From Caldisericia bacterium (GTDB lineage Bacteria > Caldisericota > Caldisericia > JAAYUI01), in contig JAGNLA010000002.1 in the NCBI GenBank assembly GCA_017999835.1, positions 99,635 through 163,634 on the forward strand: DNA of 64,000 bases. The letters run 5' to 3'. The position numbers and the translations under genes are program-made. How positions within the stretch are numbered: position 1 is the first letter of the stretch; each line of letters opens with the position of its first letter. The notes below the pieces were generated by a model. It was not told where the DNA came from, did not search any database, and was given only the letters and a program-made list of their open reading frames with translations. Of the stretch, positions 13,184-57,889 are shown piece by piece.

Positions 13184-13262
13184 GAGTTAAATATAGCACT
13201 TTGGGCAATTTTTATCAATTGTGAATATTTTTCAGTTCCTGATTTTTGTGCAATCGAAAAAA

Positions 13263-13622: not shown

Positions 13623-13666
13623 ATGTAATATATGTTAGAATATATCGATGAGGTATTCTTTATACA

Positions 13667-14386
13667 ATGATGAATATTAAGTCAATTAGTTGTAAATTAT
13701 TACTCGTTTATGTACTCATGGCATCTTTGCTACCCGTCAAAGGAGAGGACCCAAGAATAATCATTTCTTATCCGCTCTCAGGCATGCACACAAGATCGGA
13801 CACCATCCTCATTGAAGGGAAAACCATCGGCTTCTCCCCGTCACAGGTAAAAATTATTCTGGACGAATCGACCATATTGACCAGCATGGTCAATTGCGTT
13901 GACAACCACTTCCAGCTGGAAATCAAGCTTGGTTCAGGAAAGACTACCATAAGCGCACAAGCCAAGGTTGGCAACAACCCAATGGTTGAGTCCGGTTTTT
14001 ATATCTTCAGAGACTGCTCGGTAACCAATATTGTTGGTTCAAGCGAGGTTTACATCAACTCTGACAAACGTGAACTGGTCAATCTTTTTATTATGGAAAA
14101 CAACAGGACAATGGTGCCATTGAGGGAGGTTGCTGGTTTCTTTGGAGCAACCATATCCTGGAATGCCAAGAAGAAATCGTGTGACGTAACACTTGGTCGA
14201 AGAACATCTTCAATTGTCATTGGTTCAAAAACAGCGACTGTTGCTGGTTTTACTGTCGAAAGCAATCCTCCTGCAAAAATTATCAACGGAACGCTCTACG
14301 TTTCATCGAGATTGCTCTCAAAAACCGTAGGAGGAGGAGTGGCATGGGACTCCTACACAAGGACAATAACGCTGGCTGTGCCATAA
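13667..14386 (+). CDS. Secreted protein with a C-terminal CAO-N domain.
   Basis: Signal peptide. 'NNRTMVPLREVAGFFGATISW...INGTLYVSSRLLSKTVGGGVAW'. Confidence 0.5.
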   Translation: MMNIKSISCKLLLVYVLMASLLPVKGEDPRIIISYPLSGMHTRSDTILIEGKTIGFSPSQVKIILDESTILTSMVNCVDNHFQLEIKLGSGKTTISAQAKVGNNPMVESGFYIFRDCSVTNIVGSSEVYINSDKRELVNLFIMENNRTMVPLREVAGFFGATISWNAKKKSCDVTLGRRTSSIVIGSKTATVAGFTVESNPPAKIINGTLYVSSRLLSKTVGGGVAWDSYTRTITLAVP

Positions 14387-14532
14387 TTTGACTGGTATCT
14401 CCATTATCACTTGTATTCGATTTTCTATATTTTTTCTCTAAAATACAAAATTTTGGGTAAACAGGCACGTCAAAAGACCAAAAAATTTATGTTCAAAGTT
14501 GATATTGCCTTCTCGTTGTTTAAAATTGAACC

Positions 14533-17148
14533 ATGAAAAAAAGAATCTCAGTCATTTCAGCAGTTACAGCCTTTGCGCTGATTGTGTCACTGCTTCTTGT
14601 GTTTTCCGGATGTTCCAATGACACAAGCAAAGAATCTGTCCAAAAAATGTTTTTGGGCGGCCAACTCATCGAAAACACTTCACAACAGATATTTGCAAAA
14701 CTATCAGTCAATTTCCCGTTCAAGAATACACCGTATAAATCCAAAGTCGAAGGATTGCCTTCCAACTTTGAACTCTACGAAAATAACGTCATATACAGCA
14801 CATATTACCAAACAGAATACATGGTCAGTCCACCTGAAGGATCGTCCGGTCAATACCCTTACAAGATATTGATGACCTCAGATAAAGAAAAGTTCGAATT
14901 CGAAGGTGTTTTGACTGTTGGAAAACCATCCGATTCCCCGGATAGAGTTGGAGGAAATGTCGGTAAGACCGGATATCTTGGCGCAACAAACATATCCAAT
15001 TTTGCCATCACATCCAAGACGGAGATTGGAAAATTATTGATGGCAAACCCCGTTGTTTTCCCAAATGTCTGTGTCATCGGAACATCCAACGGCGAATTGG
15101 TTGGCGTGGACTTCAGCGGCAAAATTCTTTGGAGAGTCCAGATCACAAAAAACATCATCGACACACTCCAGCAATCAGGAAGTCTTGTAATTGTAAGCGA
15201 CAACTCTGGACTCATTTCGACCTTTGACATAGACAAGCTCTCCAAGGGGGAAGACAGAGCAGAAAACACCTACAGAATTCCTTCCACTCTCTCTGGCCCT
15301 CCAACAATCATTGACAAAGACATGATGGTCATCGGTTCAACGGATGGAAAAGTCGCGTGTCTTTCACTCCCTGATTTGAGAAAAATCTGGGAAATAGACA
15401 AAATTAAAGGAACCGTAATTGGTTCAATATCTGCCGTACCACTTGGCGAAGGTAAAGGCAATATTTACATCAACTCTGCGGACAAAAACACCTATATTCT
15501 CGACTACGAAGGCAATCTGCAGAAAAGGCTCGGGCACCCCGTTATTCCAATCGGCTCTCCATGCGCAAGCAACGACACCTTTGCTGTGTTGTCGGCAAAA
15601 AACCAACTTCAATTGAGATACAGCACAGGCCTCGAGGCCTGGATTGATTATTGCGAATTTGAAGTTGCTGGCATGCCGGTTATAACATCAGACCAAATAT
15701 TTGTTTATGGCAAAAACAAACTCAAATCAGTGTCACGAAAAGACGGGTCAGAGTTGTGGACAATAGATCTCCCTTCCAATATAAACGCAAATCCGGTTGT
15801 CATTGGAGACCACATCGTTATTGCTACCGAGAACAAAAACGTCAACGTCATCAGGGCAAATGATGGTTTGATTTCCTATTCATTCTCCATTGACGGATCG
15901 ATGGTCAACTGGCCATACCTTTACAATGACAGACTTTTCATTGTTGACAGGCGAGGAAGCCTATTCATTCTCTCAAAACCGGCAAACGGCAAAAGCAGCA
16001 AGTTCGACATGAGTCAGGTTGTTACCAATGGAGCCAGCACCCGACCCGACCACAACAACGTTGTAAACACAACCCTCCCACTCAAGCCAAAACTCCTCTG
16101 GTCGCTTGATGGCAGCTTTGCACCGGCCATCACGACAAAAGACAAGGTATACTTATATAACATCGACAAAAAGGAATTTTCCTGTCACAAAATGTCAAAC
16201 GGAAACCAAATCTGGAACATTCAAATTGAAGCCGCCGAAGGCATGTTCTACGGTTTCAGTATCACACCTGGCGCTCACGAAACACCAATGTTTTTCACCG
16301 AGAAAGGCTTGCTCCTTGGTACAAAAAACGGGCTTGTGCTTGTCGATCCGGATACGGGATCTGTTCTGAGCAGGTCGAATATCCAAGGCATCCCCCAGTC
16401 AGACGGAAACCTACTGGTCTGCACAACCGGCAAGGAATTGACCGTTGCCACAACAGACATGAAGAAATTGTGGTCAGTGAAAGGTGAGTATCTTTCGCCA
16501 AACGTCCTGATAGAAGGCGATTTCATCTACGCCGTCAAAAGAGGAGAGGGTGCCGGAAGATTTGACATCTTCGAAGCCAAAACCGGAAAGTCCATCTTCG
16601 ATATCTCAGACACATTGTTTGACATCTCAGCGGCCAAACTCATCTCAACCAAACAGTACATTGTTATCTCCACGATGCAGGGCCCGTGGGTCTACGACAA
16701 GATGGAAGCCAAAGTAAAAGGTACTTCAGGCACGGTCTCACTGACCAACATTCAAATTTTTGAATGCAATTACGTCAACAACAAACTCGTATGTTCAACA
16801 AACGATTTTGGACTCGATTTTGATCTCAAGACCGGTGAAGGTACTCTTTATGCTCCAAAAATAGACGAAAATCTAATTGTAATCAACAATGGAGGACACT
16901 GGATGTTCACCTCGACAAACTACGTCTGTTTGGGCATTATCCCGCCAAAAGAAAAAGTGGATATCAACACAGAGACAATGATGATATTTCCAAAATTGCT
17001 CCAGATTCGCAACATGAATTCGGATATAGTCGCATCAGTCAAAATTGAAGCCAACGACTGCGAAAAATACGGCATTGCCCTTGGTGGTTCAACAATCATT
17101 CTCTCCGAGATATGTGATGGAGCAAAATTAAGAGTATACGGGCCATGA
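14533..17148 (+). CDS. Large PQQ-like beta-propeller lipoprotein.
   Basis: Lipobox 'VFSGCS'. Multiple propeller-blade repeats. 871 aa. Confidence 0.55.
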   Translation: MKKRISVISAVTAFALIVSLLLVFSGCSNDTSKESVQKMFLGGQLIENTSQQIFAKLSVNFPFKNTPYKSKVEGLPSNFELYENNVIYSTYYQTEYMVSPPEGSSGQYPYKILMTSDKEKFEFEGVLTVGKPSDSPDRVGGNVGKTGYLGATNISNFAITSKTEIGKLLMANPVVFPNVCVIGTSNGELVGVDFSGKILWRVQITKNIIDTLQQSGSLVIVSDNSGLISTFDIDKLSKGEDRAENTYRIPSTLSGPPTIIDKDMMVIGSTDGKVACLSLPDLRKIWEIDKIKGTVIGSISAVPLGEGKGNIYINSADKNTYILDYEGNLQKRLGHPVIPIGSPCASNDTFAVLSAKNQLQLRYSTGLEAWIDYCEFEVAGMPVITSDQIFVYGKNKLKSVSRKDGSELWTIDLPSNINANPVVIGDHIVIATENKNVNVIRANDGLISYSFSIDGSMVNWPYLYNDRLFIVDRRGSLFILSKPANGKSSKFDMSQVVTNGASTRPDHNNVVNTTLPLKPKLLWSLDGSFAPAITTKDKVYLYNIDKKEFSCHKMSNGNQIWNIQIEAAEGMFYGFSITPGAHETPMFFTEKGLLLGTKNGLVLVDPDTGSVLSRSNIQGIPQSDGNLLVCTTGKELTVATTDMKKLWSVKGEYLSPNVLIEGDFIYAVKRGEGAGRFDIFEAKTGKSIFDISDTLFDISAAKLISTKQYIVISTMQGPWVYDKMEAKVKGTSGTVSLTNIQIFECNYVNNKLVCSTNDFGLDFDLKTGEGTLYAPKIDENLIVINNGGHWMFTSTNYVCLGIIPPKEKVDINTETMMIFPKLLQIRNMNSDIVASVKIEANDCEKYGIALGGSTIILSEICDGAKLRVYGP

Positions 17149-42195: not shown

Positions 42196-44733
42196 TTGAA
42201 CAAGATTGTTATGCTTGTGTGCGCCTTGCTGGCCATTCCAGCATTTGGCATTCATAATTCGTCATCAGAGGACTTGCCCAAACCCTGGCCGCAGTTTGCC
42301 TGTGACATTGCGCACTCGTCTGTGGCTTCGGACAAATGGGACTACAAAACGTACAAAACACCGGCATGGATACTGACAATGAAAGGCACAGACGGATTTT
42401 CTCGAAATCCAGTCATTGACAAAGGCTTGATGGTTATCGCCGATTCACAGCGGATTTATTGCATGGACGTGATCTCCGGTAAACAGAAATGGTCATCGGA
42501 CTTGGTCAACGGATGTGGCGGATCCTGCGCAATAATAGGCGATCGCGTGCTTGTTCCGACGTCAGGGAACATTCTTTCAATCGATTTGGCCACCGGCAAC
42601 GTTCAGGCTTCCCTGAGCATCGGATCAGCAACATCGCCAAGTTTTTATACAGATGACTACAGCAATACAGGCTTCTACTTCGGAGTCCCTGGGAAACCAG
42701 GCTACGCTGCCAAATACGACATAGATTCAGGCAGGAAAAGATGGGAGATGCAGACTGAATGGGGTTGCCCGGGTGCAATCGCCGTCAACACTGAGGAAGG
42801 CATCGCCGGTGTAACATCCCACTACAGTATCTATGCTCTCGATGAGATGTACGGCTCAATGGAAAGCCAGATTGAGACAGGAACCCAGTCTTTTGCAGCA
42901 ACGTCAGCCATCGACAGGTTCTGCGTCTACACCATGTCAGGCGGTGAAACATATTTGCTGCCAAAACTTTACGAAAAGTGGAACCCGATGATCATCGACT
43001 GTGGAGGATTCACCTTCTGGCCACCTGCCCAGTTTGGCAAAACACTCATCCAGGGCAATCAGGATGGCAGGCTGGTCAACTTCGATTTAACAGGCAAGGT
43101 CATCTGGGATGTCCAAATGCCAGGGCCGGTGACAAACGGTTCAACGGTCATGGACGGAACCGTGCTTGTGCCTGTCGGTGGCTCGGACAAAACAAAGTCA
43201 GGTGTCTACATCATGGATGCCAAAACCGGCTCGCAGATAGATTTCATCAACATTCAAGCCGAGTATGTCTTCCAGCCAGTCGTTGCCTGGCAGAGGATGT
43301 TTGTCGAGTATGGAAAGAACGAAAAATATACCAGCCGCTGGCTTGCCTGTTACGGCAAAAAACCAAGACCAGCCGACCAGGAACCAAAGCTGACAATCAA
43401 AGATTTTGTCATCACGACACAAGTGGCGTGGATGGGCGAAACACTCAAACAGGCAACACTGACAAACTCAGGCAAGGTCAAGCTCGACCTGCTGCTGACC
43501 GGCGACACGCTCATCACTCCAACCGTTGAAACAATGACGCTTGCGCCAGGTGCATCGGAAACACTGAGGATAAAAATTGTCGGCAAAAACAAACCCGGCA
43601 AATACACGCAAAAGATAAACTGCCACATCACCGATCCCGATTATGGCGACCAGTCGCTTGGCTACATAACGGCAATCATCACCATCACTGAGGCTGCTCC
43701 ACCTGAACCGCAGGATCAGCCGCCAAACCCGCCAAGAGAGCTGCAGGCAAGGGTGGTTTACGACTACATTCAACTGGAGTGGAAGCAACCTGACAAAGGA
43801 ACAGAACCTCTTGGGTACAACGTTTTCAGAACCGTCGGCACCGATGCGTTTCCAAAAGACCCGATAAACAAGTCCAAAATCACCGACCTGACATACGCCG
43901 ACAAGGAGGTCATTGCCGGGCTGCAATACACCTACAAAGTCGTTGCCCTTGGCAAGGCTGGATTGGTGTCCGACCCATCAAACACCGCAACAGCCGAAAT
44001 CCCAATAAAGCTGCTGGCTGTCAAGAACCTGAAAGCAGAAAAACAAGGCGAGGGCGTGCTTTTGACCTGGGAATCCGAGCAGCCTGTGACTTTTGTAATC
44101 GAGCGCAACGGCGACCAGGTAGGCATGACCTCAAATCTTCTGTTTTCTGACACAAACCCTCCCCAGGAAAAACTTATCTACAAGGTGTTTCCGAAGAAAG
44201 ACAACCAGTTTGGCCCTGAAGCTTTTGTCATCATTGACCTTTCTCCCCAAAAGCCACCTGACCCAGACCCAAATCCGGAACCCGAGCCTGAACCGCAACC
44301 AGAGCCGACGCCTGAAGAAAAAGAAGTCAAAATCGTTGTCGAGTTCACGGTTGGCAAGGAGATCGCCACAGTCAACGGAACGGCCAAGTTTTCAGGCGCA
44401 ATCCCGTTTATCAGTAACGGCAGGATGATGGTTCCATTCAGGTTTTTGGGTGAATCCATCGGCGCAAAGGTCAGCTACACATCAGACCCAAAAACCGGCA
44501 AAGTGTTGACTGTTACTTATGAGCTTGCCGGCAAAACCGTCCAGCTGGTCATGGGCTCAAAGACTGCAATTGTTGGCGAAGACAGCGTTGAGCTTGACGC
44601 CCCTCCACAGATTTCAGGTGGCAAAACCTATGTTCCTCTCAGGTTTGTCACGGCAGCGCTGGGTGGGACCGTGGACTGGAACGCTACAGAAAAGAAAGCA
44701 ACGATAACATATATCTCGAAGGTGAAGCCGTAG
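42196..44733 (+). CDS. Secreted PQQ-like beta-propeller / Fn3 protein with a Pro/Glu/Asp-rich linker and a C-terminal CAO-N domain.
   Basis: TTG start with RBS AAGGAGG. Linker 'PDPDPNPEPEPEPQPEPTPEE'. C-terminal 'NGRMMVPFRFLGESIGAKVSY...GGKTYVPLRFVTAALGGTVDW'. Confidence 0.55.
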   Translation: MNKIVMLVCALLAIPAFGIHNSSSEDLPKPWPQFACDIAHSSVASDKWDYKTYKTPAWILTMKGTDGFSRNPVIDKGLMVIADSQRIYCMDVISGKQKWSSDLVNGCGGSCAIIGDRVLVPTSGNILSIDLATGNVQASLSIGSATSPSFYTDDYSNTGFYFGVPGKPGYAAKYDIDSGRKRWEMQTEWGCPGAIAVNTEEGIAGVTSHYSIYALDEMYGSMESQIETGTQSFAATSAIDRFCVYTMSGGETYLLPKLYEKWNPMIIDCGGFTFWPPAQFGKTLIQGNQDGRLVNFDLTGKVIWDVQMPGPVTNGSTVMDGTVLVPVGGSDKTKSGVYIMDAKTGSQIDFINIQAEYVFQPVVAWQRMFVEYGKNEKYTSRWLACYGKKPRPADQEPKLTIKDFVITTQVAWMGETLKQATLTNSGKVKLDLLLTGDTLITPTVETMTLAPGASETLRIKIVGKNKPGKYTQKINCHITDPDYGDQSLGYITAIITITEAAPPEPQDQPPNPPRELQARVVYDYIQLEWKQPDKGTEPLGYNVFRTVGTDAFPKDPINKSKITDLTYADKEVIAGLQYTYKVVALGKAGLVSDPSNTATAEIPIKLLAVKNLKAEKQGEGVLLTWESEQPVTFVIERNGDQVGMTSNLLFSDTNPPQEKLIYKVFPKKDNQFGPEAFVIIDLSPQKPPDPDPNPEPEPEPQPEPTPEEKEVKIVVEFTVGKEIATVNGTAKFSGAIPFISNGRMMVPFRFLGESIGAKVSYTSDPKTGKVLTVTYELAGKTVQLVMGSKTAIVGEDSVELDAPPQISGGKTYVPLRFVTAALGGTVDWNATEKKATITYISKVKP

Positions 44734-44865: not shown

Positions 44866-46713
44866 TTACGATATAGGAAATGGAGGCGAAACAGCATACC
44901 AGTTCTGAGCTGATGTTTTTACTTGAATCGTATAATAACACGATGTTTGAGGATTTTTGATTCCAGAACTTTTATCAAATCTAATATCAAATTTTTCACA
45001 TTCTTTTATTGTCATTGGCAAAGTAATTGTTAATAAATTGCCATTAACCGTAGGTTTTATTTTTATCTTATACCATTTACTTATATTTCTAAAACCAATT
45101 CTTTTTAATAAACATTGTAGAAAGTTATGCTTGCTAACTGAGATCGTATTATTATCAATATTTTCTGGAATTGTAAAACCGATTGGGAATGCAATAGTAA
45201 TTGTATCTATATCATTAACCAATTTGATTTTATTATTCACTAAACGAATCTCTATGTCATCACTCATGCCAAGTTTATTATTCATAAATATAATAGGATT
45301 ATTTCTAATAAAATGAATTGTGTCTCTAATCTCGTATGGCTGAGATTTAAGCTTGTCCTCAGCGTTGTTAACTGCAATGCTTAAGTGATATAATCCACTT
45401 TTTGATGTGTTGATTAGGCGACAATTCGAATTGAAAACAAGACATAGTTTTCCTGATTGTTCTATCTTAAATCTATTTTGGAAAAAAATTCTAATTTTAT
45501 TATTATTTATGTATTCTATATTTTGCGCATGTTGAACTCCATAACCATAATAACTCCCAGGATACAAGATAATATTATCAGCAACTACCCTTTTGAAAAA
45601 TCTCAAATTTTTTAATAGAGATTTTTTTCTACCATGTTGAAAATCTATCTCAATCAATTTCAAATATTTATTTTTACTTTTACAGACATAGTTAAAAGCA
45701 ATAGCATATTCAGCACCAGATTGTAATGTCGCATTATGATTTACAGTAACATTTAATTCAGAAATAAAGATTTTTGGTATTTTTTGCTCATAATCGTCAT
45801 AGGAGACTTGAGCATTATCAGTTGATGAAAATTTCTCTGACTTTAATCTTTCATAGCTTTTCCATAATTGTTTAAAAAAATCATTACCATCTTGGACAAT
45901 TGGCTTAAAATCCAGCGAATCTAATAATTCTTTTGATTCTTCTTTAAATTCATACTTATCGATCCAATAATTGGTATATGCTTTATTATTAGTATATGAT
46001 TGTTTTATTATCTCTCTCAATCTAGAATCATATTTTGCTGACCAACCACAGATTATTACACCAAAATTATCGAAGATATCTGTCAATAATGAGTCGACAC
46101 TGGAATCAAAATTAGAAAGTTCTTGACTAGTATTTTTTAGTTCAGTATCCAGATAATCACCACATATTTTTATAAGAGATAAGTTTCTATTGGGCCAATC
46201 AGCAATAAAAGGTTTTTGATCAATAAAGCTATTCTTATCTATTATTCTTGAATAACCGATATCCTCTAGATGCAATTCCATTAATCTATCAAAGTTTGTT
46301 GTAATGATAATTTTTATTACATCTTCTTTTACTAATTTTACAATTACTTTATGTGCATTATCATCTTTGGAATTATATACGGTATCCATCTTGTGGAATG
46401 GTTCAAAGATTTCTTTTAAGTATAATCTTTTATCAGAATTTTTATTAAAATACCAGTCAATGATATCTGAATAATCAATATTTGTTTTACCTGTTTCAGT
46501 ATAATACCATTTCTCATAATCATTAAGATTCGAAAACTTTGATGAATTCATGCTGGCATACTTCTTTTTAATCAAATCCATTGATATCGAGTATGCCGTT
46601 GGTATTCCAGCAGATGTTGATAAACCAGAGCCAATTAATAGCACATATCCCCATTTATTGTTATCAAGCATACTTGCAATATTAGATATGGTTGAATCAT
46701 TTGAAGGTGACAT
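44866..46713 (-). CDS. SIR2-like (SIR2_2 / DHS-like NAD-binding) domain protein with an unrecognised ~360-aa C-terminal domain.
   Basis: N-terminal 'GSGLSTSAGIPT' (sirtuin GAGIS..GIP-like) and 'TTNFDRLME' (TTNYD-like). No Cys4 zinc ribbon. The gene is very AT-rich compared with its neighbours. Confidence 0.7.
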   Translation of the reverse strand: MSPSNDSTISNIASMLDNNKWGYVLLIGSGLSTSAGIPTAYSISMDLIKKKYASMNSSKFSNLNDYEKWYYTETGKTNIDYSDIIDWYFNKNSDKRLYLKEIFEPFHKMDTVYNSKDDNAHKVIVKLVKEDVIKIIITTNFDRLMELHLEDIGYSRIIDKNSFIDQKPFIADWPNRNLSLIKICGDYLDTELKNTSQELSNFDSSVDSLLTDIFDNFGVIICGWSAKYDSRLREIIKQSYTNNKAYTNYWIDKYEFKEESKELLDSLDFKPIVQDGNDFFKQLWKSYERLKSEKFSSTDNAQVSYDDYEQKIPKIFISELNVTVNHNATLQSGAEYAIAFNYVCKSKNKYLKLIEIDFQHGRKKSLLKNLRFFKRVVADNIILYPGSYYGYGVQHAQNIEYINNNKIRIFFQNRFKIEQSGKLCLVFNSNCRLINTSKSGLYHLSIAVNNAEDKLKSQPYEIRDTIHFIRNNPIIFMNNKLGMSDDIEIRLVNNKIKLVNDIDTITIAFPIGFTIPENIDNNTISVSKHNFLQCLLKRIGFRNISKWYKIKIKPTVNGNLLTITLPMTIKECEKFDIRFDKSSGIKNPQTSCYYTIQVKTSAQNWYAVSPPFPIS

Positions 46714-46804
46714 AATAAGATTATATATACTTTTTCAAGTAATAAAATACATTTATGTATACCATTCTGGAAAAATCCGAACTTTTCCGTTATCCTATCC
46801 CACC

Positions 46805-48466: not shown

Positions 48467-48498
48467 AAAAAGATGCTCTCAAAAAGAGCATCTTTTTT
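48467..48498 (+). terminator. Rho-independent terminator of argS.
   Basis: aaaa-agatgctct-caaaa-agagcatct-ttttt. Confidence 0.85.
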
Positions 48499-48586
48499 GT
48501 TATCTATTGCCATTGTCAGTTAAATTAAATACTATCTGGTCATCAATTTGGGAGTCAAGCACCCCACAAAAAAAGGATACAAAGAC

Positions 48587-49615
48587 ATGAACATTGAATT
48601 TAGAAGGCTTGGGTACGACGAGATAATAAACAACTGCTTTGCCCAGTTCAAAGCATTCAACGATGCCTTCAGTAAAGACATTTATCCTGATGAAAACCCG
48701 GACACCGAAGACAGGCTCAAGGAGATAATTCACGAACGTGACTGCGATTTTTACAGGTTCACTGCCTTCGACGGTGACAAGATAGTTGGCTCGATATCCT
48801 CAGGCAAGCTCAAGCCGGAGCATCCAGAATACAGCTCTAGAAAGCATGTCAGCTGGCTTGAAGGTTTTGTCCTTCCACAGTACAGAAGGCGAGGGATTGG
48901 AAAGCAGCTCGTTAGGCAAGCACTCGAAATGGCTTCCCAAAACGGTGTCGAGGTCGTCAAACCCTACACCTATTGCGATGAAGGCTTTGCGTTCATCGAA
49001 AGCCTTGGCGGAAAAGCGGTTTCGGCTCAGTCTGACAGGACACTGGAGCTTGACAAACTCGACTGGTCTCTGGTTGAATCCTGGCTCAAAATCCCTATTG
49101 GAGACCTGAAACTGGAATATTTTTCAGAATTCTCAGATGAGCTTATGGAAAGGCTCATTGATGTTTCATTTGCCTCGACGCAGGAAGTGTCTGCCATGGA
49201 CAGCTGCGAGGTGCCACCAACCCTTGATGGTGAAAGGCATTCGCTGAGGGAATTCTCAGATTACATTAAAAATACTGGTACGAGATACCATTGTCTGCTT
49301 TTGACCGACGAAGCCGGAAACATCCTTGGTTACACTGAAGGAACCATTCCCCCGGAAGACCCTGATGTTTTCAGGCAAGCCATGACAATGGTCTGGAAAC
49401 ACCATCGTGGCAAGGGTTATGGCAAGTTCCTCAAAGCAGCGATGCTCGACTTTATCCGCAAAAACCTGCCAAACATAAAAAAACAGGTGACAGGCAACAA
49501 CGACCTTAATGCCCCGATGCTTGCCATCAACCTAAAGCTGGGCTTCCAGCTTGTCAGGCAGTGGAAGGTCTACAGAGTTGAGGTGGCAAAAGCGCTGGAC
49601 AATCTCAAAATGTAA
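48587..49615 (+). CDS. Double-GNAT acyl-CoA N-acyltransferase. Paralog 1 of 4.
   Basis: 343 aa. The N-terminal half has 'VLPQYRRRGIGKQLV'. The C-terminal half has 'VWKHHRGKGYGKFLKAAML...TGNNDLNAPMLAINLKLGF'. RBS aaaaagga. Confidence 0.7.
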   Translation: MNIEFRRLGYDEIINNCFAQFKAFNDAFSKDIYPDENPDTEDRLKEIIHERDCDFYRFTAFDGDKIVGSISSGKLKPEHPEYSSRKHVSWLEGFVLPQYRRRGIGKQLVRQALEMASQNGVEVVKPYTYCDEGFAFIESLGGKAVSAQSDRTLELDKLDWSLVESWLKIPIGDLKLEYFSEFSDELMERLIDVSFASTQEVSAMDSCEVPPTLDGERHSLREFSDYIKNTGTRYHCLLLTDEAGNILGYTEGTIPPEDPDVFRQAMTMVWKHHRGKGYGKFLKAAMLDFIRKNLPNIKKQVTGNNDLNAPMLAINLKLGFQLVRQWKVYRVEVAKALDNLKM

Positions 49616-49711
49616 ATTCCAAAGCTATTGCCGACAAAAGTTAATTCCAATATCATCCAAAAACAAGAAACACGTGGGAGGTCCACGACCACAGACAAAG
49701 GAAATATTGAT

Positions 49712-50755
49712 ATGAACATAGAAATTAGAAAAGTAGAAAAAGAAGAACTTCTGGGAGATTTGTATCAGACCTACAGAATCCTTGCAATCAGGGACTTTGC
49801 CGACATGTACCCGGAGGAATCTACATTGAATGATGAGATCATCAGAACAAGACTCGAAAACAAAAATTATGATGAAAGCAATTATTTTGCTTTTTTGGAT
49901 GGGCAAATGATTGGCTATTCCGATATTAGCAGACCCAGCAGAAGCAATCCTGCTTATGAACAAAACAAGAACAGAATTGGTTTTTGGGCTTTTATTTTGC
50001 CAGAGTATAGAAAACAGGGGCTAGGTGTAAAGCTACTTACGATGGCACTTGAAGATCCACTGCGTGAGTATATCCAAAGGCTCAGAACTTCAGCGTACAG
50101 CGCCGATGGTCGAAGGTTCGTCGAGTCGCTCGGTGGCAAGGTTGTAGAAAAAAGTTCCACACGAGAGCTTCTTGTCAAAGACATTGACTGGGAGCTGGTA
50201 GAATCATGGAAAAACATGAGTTTCTCTCCAGACAAAAAACCGGTTATAGAGTTTCATAGTAAAATTGACTGGCAAATTGTTGAGCAATTCCTGGACCTGT
50301 CTTTTGAAATAAACCTGGAACTCAGCCAGATGGACAATCGCGAGTTTATTCACACCAGAGAGTCTGAGGAGCATGACTGGAAAGAAATGCTGGAGTACTG
50401 GGGTAAAACTGGCTTTGAAAATGAATGTTTCATTCTGAAAGATTCTGCTGGTTCAACCATTGGCTACACAATGTGCATTTTCTCATCCAGAGATCCAGAC
50501 ACTGTCGGTCAAAGTATGACTGCTGTCTGGAAGCACCTCCGAGGCAACGGTTATGGACAGCTCCTGAAAGCTTTGATGCTTGAAAATATTAGGACAAACC
50601 ATCCGCAGATAGTAAAAATCAACACCAGCAACAACGATCTCAACGACCCAATGGTGGGTATAAACAGAAAGCTTGGGTTTGTAGAAAAAAGTCTCTGGTG
50701 TTCGTATATTGTCGACTACAGTGAGGCAATTGAAAAACTGAGGAGCAAAAAATGA
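49712..50755 (+). CDS. Double-GNAT acyl-CoA N-acyltransferase. Paralog 2 of 4.
   Basis: 'MNIEIRKVEKEELLG', 'ILPEYRKQGLGVKLL', 'VWKHLRGNGYGQLLKALML...TSNNDLNDPMVGINRKLGF'. Confidence 0.7.
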   Translation: MNIEIRKVEKEELLGDLYQTYRILAIRDFADMYPEESTLNDEIIRTRLENKNYDESNYFAFLDGQMIGYSDISRPSRSNPAYEQNKNRIGFWAFILPEYRKQGLGVKLLTMALEDPLREYIQRLRTSAYSADGRRFVESLGGKVVEKSSTRELLVKDIDWELVESWKNMSFSPDKKPVIEFHSKIDWQIVEQFLDLSFEINLELSQMDNREFIHTRESEEHDWKEMLEYWGKTGFENECFILKDSAGSTIGYTMCIFSSRDPDTVGQSMTAVWKHLRGNGYGQLLKALMLENIRTNHPQIVKINTSNNDLNDPMVGINRKLGFVEKSLWCSYIVDYSEAIEKLRSKK

Positions 50756-51783
50756 ACATAGAAATTAGGAAAGTTGACAAGGAAGAGTTGCTGGGTGAAT
50801 ATTTTGACGCATACTGCAAAATTGTCAGACTCCAACGAGCCCAGTTTGCTCCTGACAATCCACCACCATCAAACGAGCGAATCCGAATTGGACTGGAGGA
50901 AGCGAGCGAGGACTGGCAGGTAATACGGTATATGGGATTTGCAGGAATAGATGCAATTGGATTGCTGGAATTTGGTTCTTTGAAACCTGAGTCACCCGAT
51001 TATTCCAAAAACAAGGAGATTGGCTGGCTGGACATTTTTATTGTCGACTCACACCGAAGGCAAGGAATAGGCACGAAATTTGCCAAGCAGGCAATCTTGA
51101 CTTTGAAGGAGTTAGGAGTCACAAAAATAGATGCAGGTTCAGTTTCTCAAAATGGTCAGCGATTTTTGGAACAACTTGGGGCAACTCTTAAATCAAAGTT
51201 TTCTGACAGAAATCTTGATTTGAACACGATGAACTGGAGCATTGCCGATGACTGGCTTGAAATCAGGAACAAGCTGCCAGATAAATGGTCAATTGAGTTT
51301 CATGTCGAGATTTCTGACAATTTCATCGAACAGGTAATTGATGTAAGTCATGACATTGTCTGTGAGTTAAGGGCAATGAGTAGTTACGAGTTTGTATCAA
51401 CACGCGAGTCAGAAATTAAGGACTGGAAAGAATTTGCCAGATGGGTTGAAAAGACTGGCGAAAAATATTCATGTTTCCTCATAAAAGATGATTCCGGCAA
51501 AGTCGTTGGGTACACTGAAGGCGGTTTCCGCAATGACAACCCAGCTCAGTTCCAACAATATGTCACTGGCGTAACAAAATCCAAAAGAGGTTTGGGACTT
51601 GGAAAACTACTCAAGGCGTTGATGCTTGATTATATCAGACGAGAACACCCCGAAGTCCAAAAAATCTCAACCGGCAGCAACGATTTGAACGACCCAATGC
51701 ATGGCATCAATAACATCCTTGGCTTCACACCCGGTGTTACCCGTTCAAACTACCGCATCTTAGTTGAAGAAACCATGAAATAA
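50752..51783 (+). CDS. Double-GNAT acyl-CoA N-acyltransferase. Paralog 3 of 4.
   Basis: 'MNIEIRKVDKEELLG', 'IVDSHRRQGIGTKFA', 'TKSKRGLGLGKLLKALML...TGSNDLNDPMHGINNILGF'. ATGA overlap with paralog 2. Confidence 0.7.
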   Translation: MNIEIRKVDKEELLGEYFDAYCKIVRLQRAQFAPDNPPPSNERIRIGLEEASEDWQVIRYMGFAGIDAIGLLEFGSLKPESPDYSKNKEIGWLDIFIVDSHRRQGIGTKFAKQAILTLKELGVTKIDAGSVSQNGQRFLEQLGATLKSKFSDRNLDLNTMNWSIADDWLEIRNKLPDKWSIEFHVEISDNFIEQVIDVSHDIVCELRAMSSYEFVSTRESEIKDWKEFARWVEKTGEKYSCFLIKDDSGKVVGYTEGGFRNDNPAQFQQYVTGVTKSKRGLGLGKLLKALMLDYIRREHPEVQKISTGSNDLNDPMHGINNILGFTPGVTRSNYRILVEETMK

Positions 51784-51793
51784 TGGAGTAAAG

Positions 51794-52792
51794 ATGAGTC
51801 AGGGAATTTCAATCAGACAAATTGAAAAACATGACCTGCTTGGTGAAAGCCTCAAGGCGTTTCTTGCATTCTTCAAAACCATGAACCTTGAAACATATCC
51901 AGAAGAAAAACCCTGGAGCGACAACCAGATAACCGACATCATAAAACAGAGCAGTGACAAGATGTTTCGGGTGTGCGCTCTTGATGGCGACAAGATGGTT
52001 GCCTATTCATCGCTTGACTGGAGCTTGTGCAAGCCTGGATTTGGCAGGAGTTTCATTAACGTCCTGCCAGATTACAGAAGACAAGGTCTTGGCTCAGATA
52101 TTTTTAGCCAGGTTCTCGGCCATACCCGAAACATCGGTCTTTCAAAACTGATATGCCAGACACATCATCAGTCCGGCGAGGAGTTCATGACCAGCCGGGG
52201 TGGAAAGATTGTTGCCAAAGAGTCCACCCGGACGCTTTTGATGACCAGTGTCGACTGGAGCCTTGTCGACAACTGGATTGCCATAGGGAAAATCCGCAAT
52301 CCATCGCTGAAACTTATCTTTTCAAGGCATGTTGACGACTCGATGATCCCAGGTTTGGCAACAGTCTCGCTTGAGATTGAAAGGGATTTGATGTCTCTAA
52401 ATGCAAATCAAATAGACATTTCTTACGAGTTTGAGGTTGAGGAATGGAAACGAAGGCAAGCTGAAGCGACAAGCCCAAACCAGTCAAGAATATTTCTATT
52501 TGTCCATGACGGCTGTGGCGAGATTGTCGGATACTCCAACGTTTCCATTCAAAACAGCGACCCCACCTTTGCCAGACAAGGCATGACCGCTGTCAAAAAG
52601 GATTGCCGCGGTGCAGGCATAGGAAAGCTCCTCAAGGCAGCCATGCTTCGATTCATCAAGGATAATCATCCTGAAATTGTAAAGGTTTCCACAGGCAACA
52701 ACGACTTGAACGCGCCAATCGTTGCCATCAACGAAAAGCTTGGTTTTACCAAAGGAGTTTGCTGGACAAACTTTGAACTTGAAGTAAGTTAA
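51794..52792 (+). CDS. Double-GNAT acyl-CoA N-acyltransferase. Paralog 4 of 4.
   Basis: 'VLPDYRRQGLGSDIF', 'VKKDCRGAGIGKLLKAAML...TGNNDLNAPIVAINEKLGF'. Confidence 0.7.
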   Translation: MSQGISIRQIEKHDLLGESLKAFLAFFKTMNLETYPEEKPWSDNQITDIIKQSSDKMFRVCALDGDKMVAYSSLDWSLCKPGFGRSFINVLPDYRRQGLGSDIFSQVLGHTRNIGLSKLICQTHHQSGEEFMTSRGGKIVAKESTRTLLMTSVDWSLVDNWIAIGKIRNPSLKLIFSRHVDDSMIPGLATVSLEIERDLMSLNANQIDISYEFEVEEWKRRQAEATSPNQSRIFLFVHDGCGEIVGYSNVSIQNSDPTFARQGMTAVKKDCRGAGIGKLLKAAMLRFIKDNHPEIVKVSTGNNDLNAPIVAINEKLGFTKGVCWTNFELEVS

Positions 52793-52857: not shown

Positions 52858-55158
52858 ATGAAAAAGTTTATTATCACATTGGTTTTGGGGTTGGTAATGC
52901 TTTCGTCAAGTGTTGGCATCAGAACAGATTCGAGCGTCCAGCTGAGCCCTTTAATAAAAACAAACCCTTTAAAAACCAGTTTTAATCACTATATACTAGT
53001 CAAAGATGGTGACTGCGACACCTTTTCAACACTGAAAAGGCCAAATTCTTTTCCTCTAAACTCTCGAATCATCGACACCGATTTCAACATACTCAAACAA
53101 ACACCATATCTTGACGGGTTGTATTTCTTTGACGGACAAAACTTTGCGGAAAGGTTTTATTTTCCAACCTTCTCAGCACCAAGTTCGCCATCATCGCTTT
53201 TGACCGTTGATGGGCAACATTACTATATCCCGGGAGGCTGGGACACCTATCCTTTGGAAAACATCTGCTCATACCGTTCGGGCAAAAAGGTTGAGTTTTG
53301 CAGGCTTGACACTGGAGAGATGTTTGCAACGTTTGACTTTGCCGAGACAAAAAACCCACCGTATCTTCTGGAAAACGGGAAGCTTGCCGTTATGTTTGAC
53401 AAAACAAACATCAAGCTGCTTGACCTGACAAACCAAAAGGTGCTGTACCAAACAAAATCCATTCAAAACTGGGATGCTGGCAACGGTGTCTTTGCTACGT
53501 CAAGTGCGATTTTCAACTACCGAACAGGTGAAAGCTTTGATTTGTCCAATCTGGGTCTGGACATTATATTTACACATATCCTGATAAAGAAGGATTATGT
53601 CGAGTTCTATGTTGACGTTGACCGCAACTCGAAAATGTCTGACAACCCAAGGATTGTTCGGGTTGGTTTTGATGGCAGGATAATTGAGACGATCCAGATG
53701 TCGTTTTTGCAAAAAGGCCAGGATTTCAGAATTCTTCAGTCAAAAGGCGACATAGTTCTTGTAAATCTTTGGAAATTACAATACGGGACAGAAGCTTCAA
53801 TTTCAGCCTACAGTCTGTCAACAGGCCAGATGTTGTGGGAGCAGGCTTTTGGCAATAATCTTGATACATACGACGAAGTGTTCATTTCAAACGAGAAAGA
53901 ACCGAAAGTGATTCTCCATGTTTGCCACCAGCTGGTCAAACTGGATTTAAATTCTGGAAATATCGAAAAAAGCATTAATTGGATTTACCAGCAAGTTTAC
54001 GATCCAAGGCTTGCTTTTATCAAAGGCGATCTTGTTTATGCAATGCAGGAGAGCACCAACTGTGTATTTGACAAGTATTCAATTGAAAAGATGGATTCAC
54101 AGGGCAACAAGGCTCCTGTAGAAATCCCTTTCCAAGTGCACGAGGCACTCATCGATTCCTTTGAAGACAAAGTTTATCTGGTAAGCAGAAAAATGATGGC
54201 TGACATGTCAGCTCTGATTGTTGACACTGCCATCATTGACCCCAAAACAGGAGTTGCCACAAAAAGCATTTCGTTTGTGGCAGAGGGAGTTGATGCCAAA
54301 GCAGTTACTCTGGATGGAAAATTCCTTTTTGTTTTTGGAGCGATAAAACAAACGGTTTATGACCTTTCAACCGGAAAAAAGGCAGTACTCGACGATACAA
54401 AATCAAGTCCTTGCGGCAGCATAAGCAGCAAGGTGGCAGGGGACAAGATTTATGTCCTTGCAAACTTTGCAGACAAAAAAGATGTTTTGACGGTGTTCGA
54501 CACAAATCTTGTCCAGCTGTCAAAAACCTGGGGGCTGGGAGATGCTGCAAAAATACTTTTTGCCAACGACAAGTATGTGATTTTTGGCAAGAGTAGTCCC
54601 GAAGGCATGGTGGTTTCAGACTGCAACGGCAACTGGTGGGACTCAAGCAGCTCATGCGTCATGCTTGACGGCGATTTCGCTGTCATCAAGAAGAACGGAA
54701 CTGCAAACGACTTTTTCAGGTTGAACCTTGAAACCAGGCAGGTTGAAGTCCTCGGTCAAAAGAACGTTTGGTCGTATCCGATCACCACATCTTTAGGTAA
54801 CACCTTTTTTGGTGGACGCAACACCTATGACAGGGACTTAAACTGGCTCCAGACCGACATGTACATCTCCAGAATTTTCCCGTCAACTGACAAGATTTAT
54901 GCACAACCATCATACTTTTTCGGCTCGGTTGTGGAGTTGAAACCTGCGCCATGCTATACCCTAAAAAGAGTTAGCAACAACTCATTTACAATTCAGAACA
55001 GCCGTGGCGATGAGCTTGCAGACAGCCTTTATGGCTGCGCCTATGCTTTTACCACCCCAAACAACACCATCGACCGACCAACAAAACTTGAGGGAGTGCA
55101 AAGATTTGAAAACCTCAAACCAGAGCAGTCGGCAACCTTGAAGTTTGATCTTGGTTAA
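52858..55158 (+). CDS. Large secreted hypothetical protein (766 aa).
   Basis: Signal peptide 'MKKFIITLVLGLVMLSSSVG'. RBS GGAGG. No recognisable domain. Confidence 0.5.
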   Translation: MKKFIITLVLGLVMLSSSVGIRTDSSVQLSPLIKTNPLKTSFNHYILVKDGDCDTFSTLKRPNSFPLNSRIIDTDFNILKQTPYLDGLYFFDGQNFAERFYFPTFSAPSSPSSLLTVDGQHYYIPGGWDTYPLENICSYRSGKKVEFCRLDTGEMFATFDFAETKNPPYLLENGKLAVMFDKTNIKLLDLTNQKVLYQTKSIQNWDAGNGVFATSSAIFNYRTGESFDLSNLGLDIIFTHILIKKDYVEFYVDVDRNSKMSDNPRIVRVGFDGRIIETIQMSFLQKGQDFRILQSKGDIVLVNLWKLQYGTEASISAYSLSTGQMLWEQAFGNNLDTYDEVFISNEKEPKVILHVCHQLVKLDLNSGNIEKSINWIYQQVYDPRLAFIKGDLVYAMQESTNCVFDKYSIEKMDSQGNKAPVEIPFQVHEALIDSFEDKVYLVSRKMMADMSALIVDTAIIDPKTGVATKSISFVAEGVDAKAVTLDGKFLFVFGAIKQTVYDLSTGKKAVLDDTKSSPCGSISSKVAGDKIYVLANFADKKDVLTVFDTNLVQLSKTWGLGDAAKILFANDKYVIFGKSSPEGMVVSDCNGNWWDSSSSCVMLDGDFAVIKKNGTANDFFRLNLETRQVEVLGQKNVWSYPITTSLGNTFFGGRNTYDRDLNWLQTDMYISRIFPSTDKIYAQPSYFFGSVVELKPAPCYTLKRVSNNSFTIQNSRGDELADSLYGCAYAFTTPNNTIDRPTKLEGVQRFENLKPEQSATLKFDLG

Positions 55159-55430
55159 GTAGACGAAACCGCGCCTGTCCATCTTGCTGTGTTTTCAAAC
55201 GGTTTTTACGATAAAAAGAACACCAACCCTGAGAAAAACAAATATGCCTATGTCGGTACCTATCTTAGCGATGAAAACCCAATGTTGATCTACATTGGCA
55301 GCTGGATAACAAAATAAAGATAATACTTATTTAATAATTTTTATTAACTGATTTTTATAAAGTTGTGATTATTACATAAATAATTGGTATTTCAACTCCT
55401 TTTTCATTACAATCAGGTTACATCACGTTC

Positions 55431-55492: not shown

Positions 55493-56137
55493 ATGCACAT
55501 ACCTGATGGATTTCTTTCTGTACCGACAAGCGCCACGTTAATTGGCGTATCGGGTGCCTCTTTGGGTTTTTCAATCTGGAAAACCACTAAAGAGCTTGTT
55601 GAGAAGCAGGTTCCCCTGCTTGCAGTTACGGCTGCGTTTATCTTTGCAGCCCAGATGCTCAATTTCCCTGTTGCAGTTGGCACGTCAGGCCATTTCTTGG
55701 GCGCGATGCTTGCTGCCGTTTTGCTTGGTCCCTATGCCTCATTTATTGTCATCTCTATTGTTCTGGTTCTTCAGGCGCTGATATTCAAAGACGGCGGCCT
55801 GCTGGCAATGGGTGCCAACATCTTCAACATGGCGTTCATGGGCGGACTCGTCTGTTCGTGGATTTTTGCCGGATTGAAGAAAATCCTCCCAAAAAACAAG
55901 AGTGTTTTCCTTGTTCTTGTTGGCGTGGTTTCATGGCTGTCTGTGGTGTTAGCATCGTTTGCATGCTCAACCGAACTGGCAATCTCTGGCACATTCCAGT
56001 TTGTGCCGGTCACCTGGTCGATGTTTATTGTTCACGCCATTATTGGATGCGGTGAGGCAATAATAACAGTTGCCGTTATTTCACTGATTCTTGGCGTCCG
56101 TCCAGACCTTGTGGCCATGTGGGATGGTGGTAAATGA
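55493..56137 (+). CDS. cbiM: ECF transporter substrate-capture component CbiM/NikM.
   Basis: N-terminal 'MHIPDGFLS' signature. About 6 TM helices. Confidence 0.85.
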   Translation: MHIPDGFLSVPTSATLIGVSGASLGFSIWKTTKELVEKQVPLLAVTAAFIFAAQMLNFPVAVGTSGHFLGAMLAAVLLGPYASFIVISIVLVLQALIFKDGGLLAMGANIFNMAFMGGLVCSWIFAGLKKILPKNKSVFLVLVGVVSWLSVVLASFACSTELAISGTFQFVPVTWSMFIVHAIIGCGEAIITVAVISLILGVRPDLVAMWDGGK

Positions 56138-56430
56138 ACAAAAAAAACCTGCTGTTTGTTATCATCGGTTTGGTTGTAGCCGTGGCTCTTGCCATTTTCA
56201 TCTCGCCTTTCGCCTCACCCGATCCAGACGGATTGGAGAGGGTTGCCGAGGACAAGGGTTTCATTGACAAAGCTCAAGACACCTGGACAAGCGCCCCGCT
56301 TCCGGATTACACTGTACCTGGAATCGGCAACGAAAGCCTGTCTACAGCCCTGGCCGGTGCCATTGGCACGGTTGTGGTTTTCGGCGTTGGACTTGGCGTA
56401 GCGTTTGTTTTAAAGAAAAGAGCTGTTTGA
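56134..56430 (+). CDS. cbiN: Small membrane component with a PDGLE motif (CbiN / NikL-like).
   Basis: N-terminal TM helix, then 'SPDPDGLERVAED', then a C-terminal TM helix. Translationally coupled on both sides. Confidence 0.55.
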   Translation: MNKKNLLFVIIGLVVAVALAIFISPFASPDPDGLERVAEDKGFIDKAQDTWTSAPLPDYTVPGIGNESLSTALAGAIGTVVVFGVGLGVAFVLKKRAV

Positions 56431-57191
56431 GACACGATTTTTTTGATTCGCACTGCCACCACGAGAGCGTTCTTGGGACTTTAGATCCCAGAGTGAAGCT
56501 TGTTGCCACACTTGCTTTCGTGGTGGCAATCACCATCATCCCACCCAATGCCTACTTTGCCTATCTTGTTTTTTTTGTTGCCGCAATAATTATGTCCATT
56601 GTTAGCAAAGTAAGACCAAACCACTATCTTCAATCGCTTCTGGTTATTACCCCACTGATTGCCACTTTGGCGCTTGCCGTACCCTTCATGAATCCGCGGC
56701 CTGGGGATGGCTTGTCTCTTGGCAATGACCTGAGCATAAACTCTTACAAACTGATAATGTTGTTCAGTCTGGTATCAAAGACTGTATTATCCTATCTTTT
56801 TTCACTTATTCTATTGTTTTCCACAAGCTTTGGCAGCCTGATGGAAGCGTTTGAAAAACTCGGAGTACCAAAACTTTTTGTCATGATAGCCAATTTTGCC
56901 TACCGCTATCAGTTCATCATTGTTGATGAAACCGAAAGACTTGTACGATCCAGAAACTCAAGGCTGTGGCAGCCACGTTTCATAACCCAGGCCAAAACCA
57001 TTGGCTACATGGTTGGCACACTTTTTTTGCGATCCTATGAACGCTCGGAGAGGGTTTACATGGCCATGTCCTCGCGTGGATTTACAGGCAAATTCGTTTC
57101 TCACACTGAGATGAAACTCAAGCCTGCCGATTGGGTTTATTCCTTGCTTTGTGCGGGGACAATCGCAGCAGTCTGGATTTGGTTGATATGA
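56427..57191 (+). CDS. cbiQ: ECF transporter transmembrane (T) component CbiQ.
   Basis: TTG start overlapping the cbiN stop. 'LDPRVKLV' N-terminal motif. Multi-TM. Confidence 0.7.
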   Translation: MRHDFFDSHCHHESVLGTLDPRVKLVATLAFVVAITIIPPNAYFAYLVFFVAAIIMSIVSKVRPNHYLQSLLVITPLIATLALAVPFMNPRPGDGLSLGNDLSINSYKLIMLFSLVSKTVLSYLFSLILLFSTSFGSLMEAFEKLGVPKLFVMIANFAYRYQFIIVDETERLVRSRNSRLWQPRFITQAKTIGYMVGTLFLRSYERSERVYMAMSSRGFTGKFVSHTEMKLKPADWVYSLLCAGTIAAVWIWLI

Positions 57192-57889
57192 AAATATTGG
57201 AGATTGAAAACCTCAGCTATTCCTACCCAGATGGCACAAAAGCCATTGATAACATCAGCTTTTCGATGGATGAAGGACAAAAGATGGCAGTGCTTGGCGC
57301 AAATGGTGCTGGCAAATCCACACTTATGCTCCACCTCAACGGCATCCTGGAAGGAAAAGGCAGAATTTCTGTCTGCGGACTCGAGCTTGGCAAGAAAAAT
57401 ACCAGGCAAATAAGGCAAAAGGTCGGTCTGGTGTTTCAAAACCCTGACGATCAGTTATTCTGCCCAACCGTTTTCGACGACGTTGCCTTTGGCCCTCAGA
57501 ACATGGGATTACCCAAGGAAGAGATCCAAAAGAGAGTGACGGCAGCGCTTGCCAGAGTCGGTCTTACCGGTTTTGAAAAGCGCAGTCCTTTCCATCTCTC
57601 CACAGGCGAAAAGAAACGTGTTTCGCTTGCAACAGTGCTTTCCATGGATTCAGAACTGATAGTGCTTGACGAACCAACATCAAACCTCGACCCAAAGGGA
57701 AGACGTGAAATAATCGAACTTCTGGCAACACTGGGCAAATCCATGATTATCGTCACCCATGACTTTGACATGGCAAGCAGACTATGTCCAAGAAGCATCG
57801 TGCTTTCAAAGGGCCGCTTGGTTGCTGACGGGGAAACAGCAAAAATAATATCAGACGAAACCTTGCTCAAAAATAACGGATTGTACTAA
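57188..57889 (+). CDS. cbiO: ECF transporter ATPase CbiO.
   Basis: Walker A 'GANGAGKST', signature 'LSTGEKKR', Walker B 'LIVLDEPTS'. Start at the ATG overlapping the cbiQ stop. Confidence 0.85.
   Translation: MKILEIENLSYSYPDGTKAIDNISFSMDEGQKMAVLGANGAGKSTLMLHLNGILEGKGRISVCGLELGKKNTRQIRQKVGLVFQNPDDQLFCPTVFDDVAFGPQNMGLPKEEIQKRVTAALARVGLTGFEKRSPFHLSTGEKKRVSLATVLSMDSELIVLDEPTSNLDPKGRREIIELLATLGKSMIIVTHDFDMASRLCPRSIVLSKGRLVADGETAKIISDETLLKNNGLY

Follow-up and report, generated by a model that had tools for sequence, protein, structure and literature searches.

The closest described relatives of the proteins considered here are tandem GNATs, in which two GCN5-related N-acetyltransferase (GNAT) lobes are joined in one polypeptide. 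ORF14 (CBG; 2WPW/2WPX), from the clavulanic acid cluster of Streptomyces clavuligerus, is a single chain of about 340 residues; it is required for clavulanic acid production, and its role is still unreported and its substrate unproven (PMC8788787). In ORF14, in the mycothiol synthase MshD (1OZP) and in the Legionella effector VipF (6WQB/7WX5), the acetyl-coenzyme A (acetyl-CoA) held by the N-terminal (N) lobe is buried and structural rather than catalytic, and the C-terminal (C) lobe is active, in VipF the only active one (PMC8788787; PMC10936415). Proteins of related fold include the glucosamine/glucosaminide N-acetyltransferase GlmA (5KF1), MAB_4324c of Mycobacterium abscessus (7Q3A), which is a single gene of the WhiB7 antibiotic-stress regulon, and the aminoglycoside acetyltransferase Eis, which also has two GNAT-like lobes. 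Here we analyze a tandem array of four such genes, G1 to G4, in a 64,000-nucleotide stretch of the metagenome-assembled genome of an uncultured Caldisericia bacterium, phylum Caldisericota (contig JAGNLA010000002.1; hereafter, the window). We consider it fairly probable that G1-G4 are cytoplasmic acyl-CoA N-acyltransferases of an ORF14-like branch, with amine acceptors that differ from one paralog class to another.

Family assignment of the array proteins

The array consists of four consecutive open reading frames (ORFs) encoding true paralogs of 342, 347, 343 and 332 amino acids (aa):

48587-49615, plus strand: G1, tandem GNAT of paralog class A, 342 aa from its ATG
49712-50755, plus strand: G2, tandem GNAT of paralog class B, 347 aa
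50752-51783, plus strand: G3, tandem GNAT of paralog class C, 343 aa, its start overlapping the G2 stop (ATGA)
51794-52792, plus strand: G4, tandem GNAT of paralog class F, 332 aa

Compared pairwise by BLASTP, the four are 30-38% identical along their full length (E 1e-45 to 1e-74), a similarity well past what chance would give. The Pfam family Acetyltransf_1 matches two stretches in each protein, at 38.8-69.2 bits against a gathering cut-off of 20.7, and the R-x-x-G-x-G loop that binds the CoA pyrophosphate is present in both lobes of all four (in G1, RRRGIG in the N lobe and RGKGYG in the C lobe). By domain content and by this loop, G1-G4 are classed as members of the GNAT superfamily. The first-pass annotation had described four same-strand paralogs with one double-GNAT architecture and an ATGA overlap between G2 and G3; the Pfam stretches and the coordinates agree with it, and every motif string that it quoted is present. 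For G1, the mechanical ORF begins at a TTG at 48548 and the NCBI call has 355 aa. The ATG at 48587 is favored over the TTG, since G1 orthologs are 342 aa long and begin with MNIE; an AGGA ribosome-binding site lies about 9 nucleotides (nt) upstream of this ATG. No fifth GNAT copy of the array type was found in the window. The four-gene array recurs in two further assemblies, and contig JAHZTK010000088.1 of GCA_020047475.1 encodes a protein identical to G1.

Within the superfamily, no curated NCBIfam model comes near its cut-off for any of the four proteins. The MshD model TIGR03448 gives 23.5-23.9 bits for G1, G3 and G4 against a cut-off of 163.1 and has no match to G2 at E<=1; mycothiol is an actinobacterial thiol. 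RimI (TIGR01575) reaches 38.3 bits at best, for G4, against 86.4, and is a single lobe of about 150 aa, whereas G1-G4 have two lobes. The best scores for AAC(6') group E (28.9 bits against 140), ArsN1a (34.6 against 170) and STAT (16 against 420) are similarly far below their cut-offs. These scores rule out MshD, RimI, AAC, STAT/Sat4 and ArsN identities. Eis is ruled out as well, as G1-G4 have neither the third, SCP2-like C-terminal domain nor the Eis-type central GNAT nor the length of about 400 aa, and no Eis-specific Pfam family is among those matched by 56 family members. All 56 of these members match Acetyltransf_1, and in the Pfam scan they match GNAT-clan families only. The alternatives of an Eis-like or an MshD-like classification, between which profile analysis had been proposed to decide, thus both fall away in favor of an ORF14-like one.

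ORF14 is the nearest characterized or solved relative of G1-G4 by both sequence and fold. When a profile of the four proteins was compared with all sequences in the PDB, ORF14 came first with E 1e-21, the next match having E 2e-7, and with a profile of the C lobe only it scored 84 bits, the second-best match having 25.7. Modeled with AlphaFold2 from 56 homologs (pLDDT 95.9, pTM 0.90), G1 has two alpha/beta lobes, and the fold-search matches of the model to ORF14, MAB_4324, GlmA and MshD extend over both of them (272-305 aligned residues). The scores, with template modeling (TM) scores where noted, were as follows:

ORF14: TM 0.74-0.80, score 27.1
MAB_4324: in the top matches, score 25.7
GlmA: in the top matches, score 22.9
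MshD: in the top matches, score 21.8
VipF: in the top matches, score 20.6
Eis: TM about 0.5, score 15.4

G1-G4, like ORF14, have two GNAT lobes in a single chain of about 340 aa with no extra domain. They have in common with it the C-lobe signature Q-x-x-T-x-V...R-G-x-x-x-G-x-L-L-K and T-x-N-x-x-x-N-x-P-M-x-A-x-N-x-x-L-G-F, and an R-R-R-G-I-G loop in the N lobe. They differ in that identity is only about 21%, in phylum, and in being multi-copy and variable; ORF14 sits in a clavam cluster, whereas no clavam, beta-lactam or other biosynthetic cluster lies near the array. Identity is lower still to GlmA and MAB_4324c (15% each) and to VipF (12-15%, with Foldseek E 1e-15 to 1e-16). VipF resembles the array proteins in being a tandem GNAT with loops in both lobes, but differs in being a secreted effector that acetylates a eukaryotic protein. 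Mutant entries of GlmA (D287N and Y297F) imply a catalytic Asp/Tyr pair, to which no invariant residues correspond in the array.

The first-pass annotation had also considered Fem-type aminoacyl-tRNA-dependent transferases, and profile analysis does not bear these out: FemAB, Leu_Phe_trans and DUF2156 have no match to G1-G4 at E<=1, and Fem, L/F-transferase and MprF structures are absent from the top matches of both fold searches. Because ORF14 leads in sequence and fold and these other families give no matches, we assign G1-G4, on sequence and a predicted structure, to the CoA-type tandem GNATs of an ORF14-like branch, a branch with no curated Pfam or NCBIfam model, in which membership is a matter of homology only. 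They are accordingly predicted to depend on CoA. They add to a known kind of enzyme, and no unusual mechanism is indicated. PADLOC assigns neither G1-G4 nor the product of the next gene downstream to an anti-phage defense family at E<=0.01.

The branch is of moderate size: searched against 1.84 billion representative sequences, the profile retrieves 270 clusters at E<=1e-30, a number that rises to 2082 at E<=1e-10. No more than eight of them lie close to the query, at E<=1e-86, the next best being at about 1e-59. Names among the matches of the other searches include Elusimicrobia, Armatimonadota, Actinobacteria, Azospirillum and an archaeon. Two representatives, P0127 (749 aa) and P0245 (680 aa), are about twice the usual length, and in P0127 two stretches match, suggesting that two tandem-GNAT units have been fused or that another domain has been added by fusion. 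A literature search on acetyltransferases of Caldisericota returned nothing relevant.

Paralog classes, catalytic lobe and acceptor

Sister species, with ArgS 93-96% identical to that of the window (synonymous divergence, dS, 0.7-1.5), hold 2-6 array copies between argS and a secreted ORFan of about 820 aa. Neighbor-joining and identity clustering separate at least six paralog classes, arranged as follows in the window and in seven relatives (L020 to L044):

L040: 6 intact copies, A-A-E-B-C-F
L041: 5 intact copies, A-B-C-D-F
Window: 4 intact copies, A-B-C-F
L038: 4 intact copies, A-E-C-F
L042: 4 intact copies, A-E-D-F
L021: 3 intact copies, A-C-F
L020: 2 intact copies and two frameshifted remnants
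L044: at least 3 intact copies, at a contig end, ...C-B-F

Wherever an array is seen from its first member, it opens with class A and closes with class F (in L020 class F is a pseudogene), and class B, that of G2, is present in some relatives only and is a pseudogene in L020. Except in L044, the order is collinear. Copy number, which the first-pass annotation had proposed to check in relatives, therefore does vary, and we do not find a widespread, fixed four-gene cluster of known function. Single-copy homologs from further genera of the Caldisericia branch within classes B and D, with Elusimicrobia homologs as the outgroup; the classes are therefore old. On this sequence evidence we read the array as an old multi-class cluster shaped by differential retention and loss under purifying selection, and the earlier picture of a locally amplified family does not hold in the sense of a recent amplification.

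The genes are kept under constraint. Ratios of nonsynonymous to synonymous substitution (dN/dS) among G1-G4 themselves are not meaningful, since synonymous sites are saturated at 30-38% identity, and sister-species orthologs were used instead; ortholog dS is 0.4-2.4, and dN/dS was not computable for some pairs. The ratio is 0.07-0.26 for array genes against 0.03 for argS. By gene, it is 0.07-0.12 for G1, whose orthologs are 62-90% identical, 0.14-0.20 for G2 and 0.12-0.14 for G3; in G4 it is 0.06-0.09 for the C lobe and 0.15-0.32 for the N lobe. For classes C and F, constraint is tighter in the C lobe than in the N lobe and linker. Judged from these ratios, the array genes are functional and each class is under purifying selection. 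The near-identical starts of G2 and G3 had been singled out in the first-pass annotation, and the sequence MNIEIRKVEKEELLG is indeed common to both. It is, however, a family-wide N-terminus, found also in other paralog classes and genera, and gives no sign of a recent G2/G3 duplication. Similarity between the window paralogs at the DNA level is limited to the conserved C-terminal motifs and the first 47 nt, the MNIEIRKVEKEELLG region, and there has been no recent gene conversion among them.

Conservation is concentrated in the C lobe. Among array members from seven strains, 20 of the 27 invariant residues fall within residues 261-320, the beta4-alpha3 loop and motif B of this lobe, and across 56 wider homologs all eight invariant residues lie in it (Q264, R274, K283, T302, N308, I314, N315, G319). 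Class E, which does not occur in the window, no longer has any R-x-x-G-x-G loop in its N lobe but retains a perfect RGKG(L/I)GK in the C lobe; its members are:

L038, 1400-2410: class E gene (L038.2)
L040, 4216-5220: class E gene (L040.3)
L042, 5609-6637: class E gene (L042.2)

Because of the C-lobe invariants, the loop loss in class E and the precedent of ORF14, MshD and VipF, the C lobe is probably catalytic in G1-G4 and the N lobe probably structural, though still CoA-binding. Differences between classes lie elsewhere. Of 31 class-specific positions, conserved within a class and differing between classes, 10 are found in residues 151-215, where the linker and the first C-lobe helices lie, in line with the earlier remark that divergence is concentrated between the motifs. 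In solved tandem GNATs the acceptor sits in the inter-lobe cleft at this region (PMC10936415), and the enrichment thus fits paralog classes that differ in their amine acceptor, as we infer.

In the mechanism that we propose, the R-G-x-G-x-G-K loop of the C lobe would hold the CoA pyrophosphate, and this lobe would be the catalyst in each protein. An acceptor amine in the cleft between the lobes would attack the thioester directly. The N lobe would act as a structural partner, still binding the CoA nucleotide in G1-G4 and forming one wall of the acceptor cleft. Coming from four different old classes, G1-G4 would most likely differ in the amine acylated, be it on a small metabolite, an antimetabolite, or a peptide or protein, and the species of the genus would have retained different subsets, 2-6 copies, of the old cluster.

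Several points weigh against this proposal. The function is drawn from superfamily-level homology, in a branch that has no enzyme of proven substrate. The C lobe has no invariant Tyr, Glu or His among the array members and the 56 homologs, so that a classical general acid or base cannot be named and catalytic details are uncertain. The intact CoA loop in the N lobe of all four window proteins may mean a second active site. The class-specific positions are placed as facing the cleft from their position in the sequence, the class tree is a simple neighbor-joining one, and in L044, the most divergent strain, the order C-B-F means that collinearity is not absolute.

G1-G4 give the tandem-GNAT group a clear, well-populated example from a little-studied phylum and show that the ORF14-like branch extends beyond antibiotic producers. 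The variable array illustrates birth-and-death evolution neatly and is of limited general importance. The series of arrays with 2-6 copies, together with class E, could offer a comparative system for studying what the non-catalytic lobe does in tandem GNATs, and any substrate identified would be the first functional anchor for ORF14-like enzymes, ORF14 included.

Candidate substrates and other explanations

The array could be a strain-variable detoxification or immunity cassette, in which competitors produce amine-bearing antibiotics or antimetabolites and each paralog inactivates a different one of these by N-acylation, the repertoire being shaped by the local community. This would sharpen the proposal of class-specific acceptors rather than contradict it, and we regard it as possible, if on the doubtful side. 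Inactivation by N-acylation is familiar from the tabtoxin-resistance protein, phosphinothricin acetyltransferases and MccE/RimL. Such a role would fit the presence/absence polymorphism of classes between sister species, an array-gene dN that is 3-7 times that of argS, and weak C-lobe matches to Acetyltransf_3 (RimJ/RimL-type) and ArsN1. Yet every resistance-family NCBIfam score is far under its cut-off (AAC(6') 29 against 140, ArsN1 35 against 170), the flanks are syntenic housekeeping genes with no mobile-element context, and the classes, which are old, evolve under purifying selection and give no sign of arms-race-like positive selection. Aminoglycosides are poor candidates: obligate anaerobes generally take them up poorly, and the lineage is assumed to be anaerobic because related metagenome-assembled genomes have names that refer to anaerobic reactors and digesters. 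They are therefore unlikely to be the selective agent. The weak acetylation of amikacin by MAB_4324c, itself a tandem GNAT (PMC10727445), speaks for a detoxifying role but would then be of little relevance. A bolder version casts the array as a strain-specific repertoire of acylating "antidotes", each class acting against a different amine-bearing toxic metabolite of the bacterial community, or, in a variant, as one unrecognized module with the secreted propeller-like ORFan downstream. MccE/RimL-type GNATs acetylate aminoacyl-adenylate mimics that poison aminoacyl-tRNA synthetases, which makes such mimics candidates for these metabolites. We hold this version to be a long shot; if it were true, the class repertoire would serve as an ecological indicator of chemical warfare in Caldisericota.

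The enzymes could also acetylate proteins or peptides, at the N-terminus or on lysine as do RimI and VipF, and their targets might include the adjacent secreted protein before its export, an idea that we rate as improbable. The protein in question is encoded directly 3' of G4, as the first-pass annotation had stated:

52858-55158, plus strand: 766-aa protein (the ORFan) with a signal-peptide-like N-terminus, a conserved neighbor and possible operon partner of the array

RimI is the best sub-threshold NCBIfam match of both G4 and G2, but its 38 bits stand against a cut-off of 86, and VipF shows that a tandem GNAT can acetylate a protein (PMC10936415). The ORFan lies 3' of the array in every relative seen (L021, L038, L040, L041, L042, L044), even in L041 and L042, which are without cbiMNQO; no terminator-like site occurs in the 65-nt gap between G4 and the ORFan, and in L020 the ORFan has become a pseudogene along with the distal GNAT copies. 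Adjacency and this joint loss, the only support for acylation of the ORFan, are suggestive but weak evidence of a functional link between array and ORFan. On the other side, the adjacency is only genus-deep, homologs elsewhere having no ORFan, and in the window the ORFan has a premature stop beside four intact GNAT genes. We know of no precedent for the cytoplasmic acylation of a Sec substrate by up to six different enzymes.

By analogy with ORF14, the array might instead supply tailoring enzymes to a secondary-metabolite pathway. That its closest solved relative is required for clavulanic acid production (PMC8788787) speaks for this, but identity to ORF14 is only about 21%, and the 10 kb on either side contain no biosynthetic core genes, the neighbors being argS, cbiMNQO, archease, PEMT, peptidase and propeller-protein genes. 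Homologs outside the genus are single genes in unrelated neighborhoods with no common theme: an Elusimicrobia homolog adjoins a suf operon, and a Dormibacter homolog adjoins transhydrogenase and thiamine genes. The single-copy Caldisericia loci have no neighbor in common with the window (rarA-like N-terminal sequences were noted by eye in ORF lists only). We consider tailoring very unlikely. The remaining candidates, aminoacyl-tRNA-dependent transferases of the Fem, L/F-transferase or MprF type that would use Arg-tRNA, are largely refuted, and we give them next to no weight. The double-GNAT architecture is common to Fem-type enzymes, and argS is immediately upstream in L020, L021, L040, L042 and the window, where the first-pass annotation had placed it. 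Both lobes nevertheless carry a canonical CoA pyrophosphate loop, FemAB, Leu_Phe_trans and DUF2156 are absent from the Pfam families of the 56 members, and in the window a strong terminator and a promoter-like site separate argS from G1:

48467-48497, plus strand: terminator-like hairpin with a 13-bp stem and T run, at the end of the argS transcript
48507-48535, plus strand: promoter-like site (TTGCCA, 17 nt, TACTAT) 5' of G1, a consensus match only

Given these two elements, the array here is probably its own transcription unit, separate from argS. Because of them, because two other genes lie between argS and the array in L041, and because homologs outside the genus have no argS nearby, we rejected the argS linkage as a clue to function.

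Neighboring genes

The gene order in the window is a PQQ-type propeller protein, a SIR2_2 gene on the minus strand, argS, G1-G4 and the ORFan, followed by cbiM, a PDGLE protein, cbiQ, an ABC ATPase, a small protein and archease. The cbiM, PDGLE protein, cbiQ and ABC ATPase genes (55493-57889) are present in the window, L021, L038, L040 and L044 and absent from L041 and L042, and this block is another presence/absence polymorphism of the region.

The ORFan has no Pfam match and is genus-restricted, with only 6 clusters among 5.8 billion proteins. Its AlphaFold2 model, made from 5 sequences, is poor (pLDDT 50), all-beta and propeller-like, and the fold matches are generic beta-propellers with TM below 0.25; we therefore draw no function from the fold. 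At 55156-55317, an in-frame TAA ends the ORFan at a position that in relatives is occupied by Q, T, S or N, and the 53 codons past it stay in frame and are near-identical to the conserved C-terminal tail of the relatives of about 820 aa (VDETAPVHLAVFSNGFYDKKNTNPEKNKYAYVGTYLSDENPMLIYIGSWITK). The shortened form is called alike in all three assemblies of the window strain, and the TAA is either a very recent nonsense mutation or a site of stop-codon read-through. In L020, at 11112-15204, frameshifts and stops disrupt the copies of classes B and F as well as the downstream ORFan; argS and the two class A copies are intact. This breakage may reflect regional decay or the loss of a functional unit, and an assembly error is possible.

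Upstream of the array, argS has its true start at 46805 and encodes 546 aa (MEPNTQ...), as in all orthologs. The mechanical and NCBI calls of 585-631 aa are over-extended at the 5' end (46550-46804) and overlap the start of the SIR2 gene on the opposite strand. This gene (44866-46713, minus strand) encodes a 615-aa SIR2_2-domain protein and has a GC content of 27.8%, against 52% for argS and 45% for the whole window. Among its matches are PDC-S65, a candidate anti-phage defense family (E 1e-71), and SIR2 modules of short-pAgo systems. Because its slot is occupied in L021 by an unrelated gene of 406 aa, it looks like a recently acquired defense gene in a variable slot just upstream of argS. Beyond it, at 42196-44733, lies the gene for an 845-aa secreted protein with a PQQ/BamB-like beta-propeller, an fn3-like region, a Pro/Glu-rich linker and, at its C-terminus, domains of the copper-amine-oxidase N-terminal type. 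The array is thus flanked by two large propeller-like secreted proteins, this one and the downstream ORFan.

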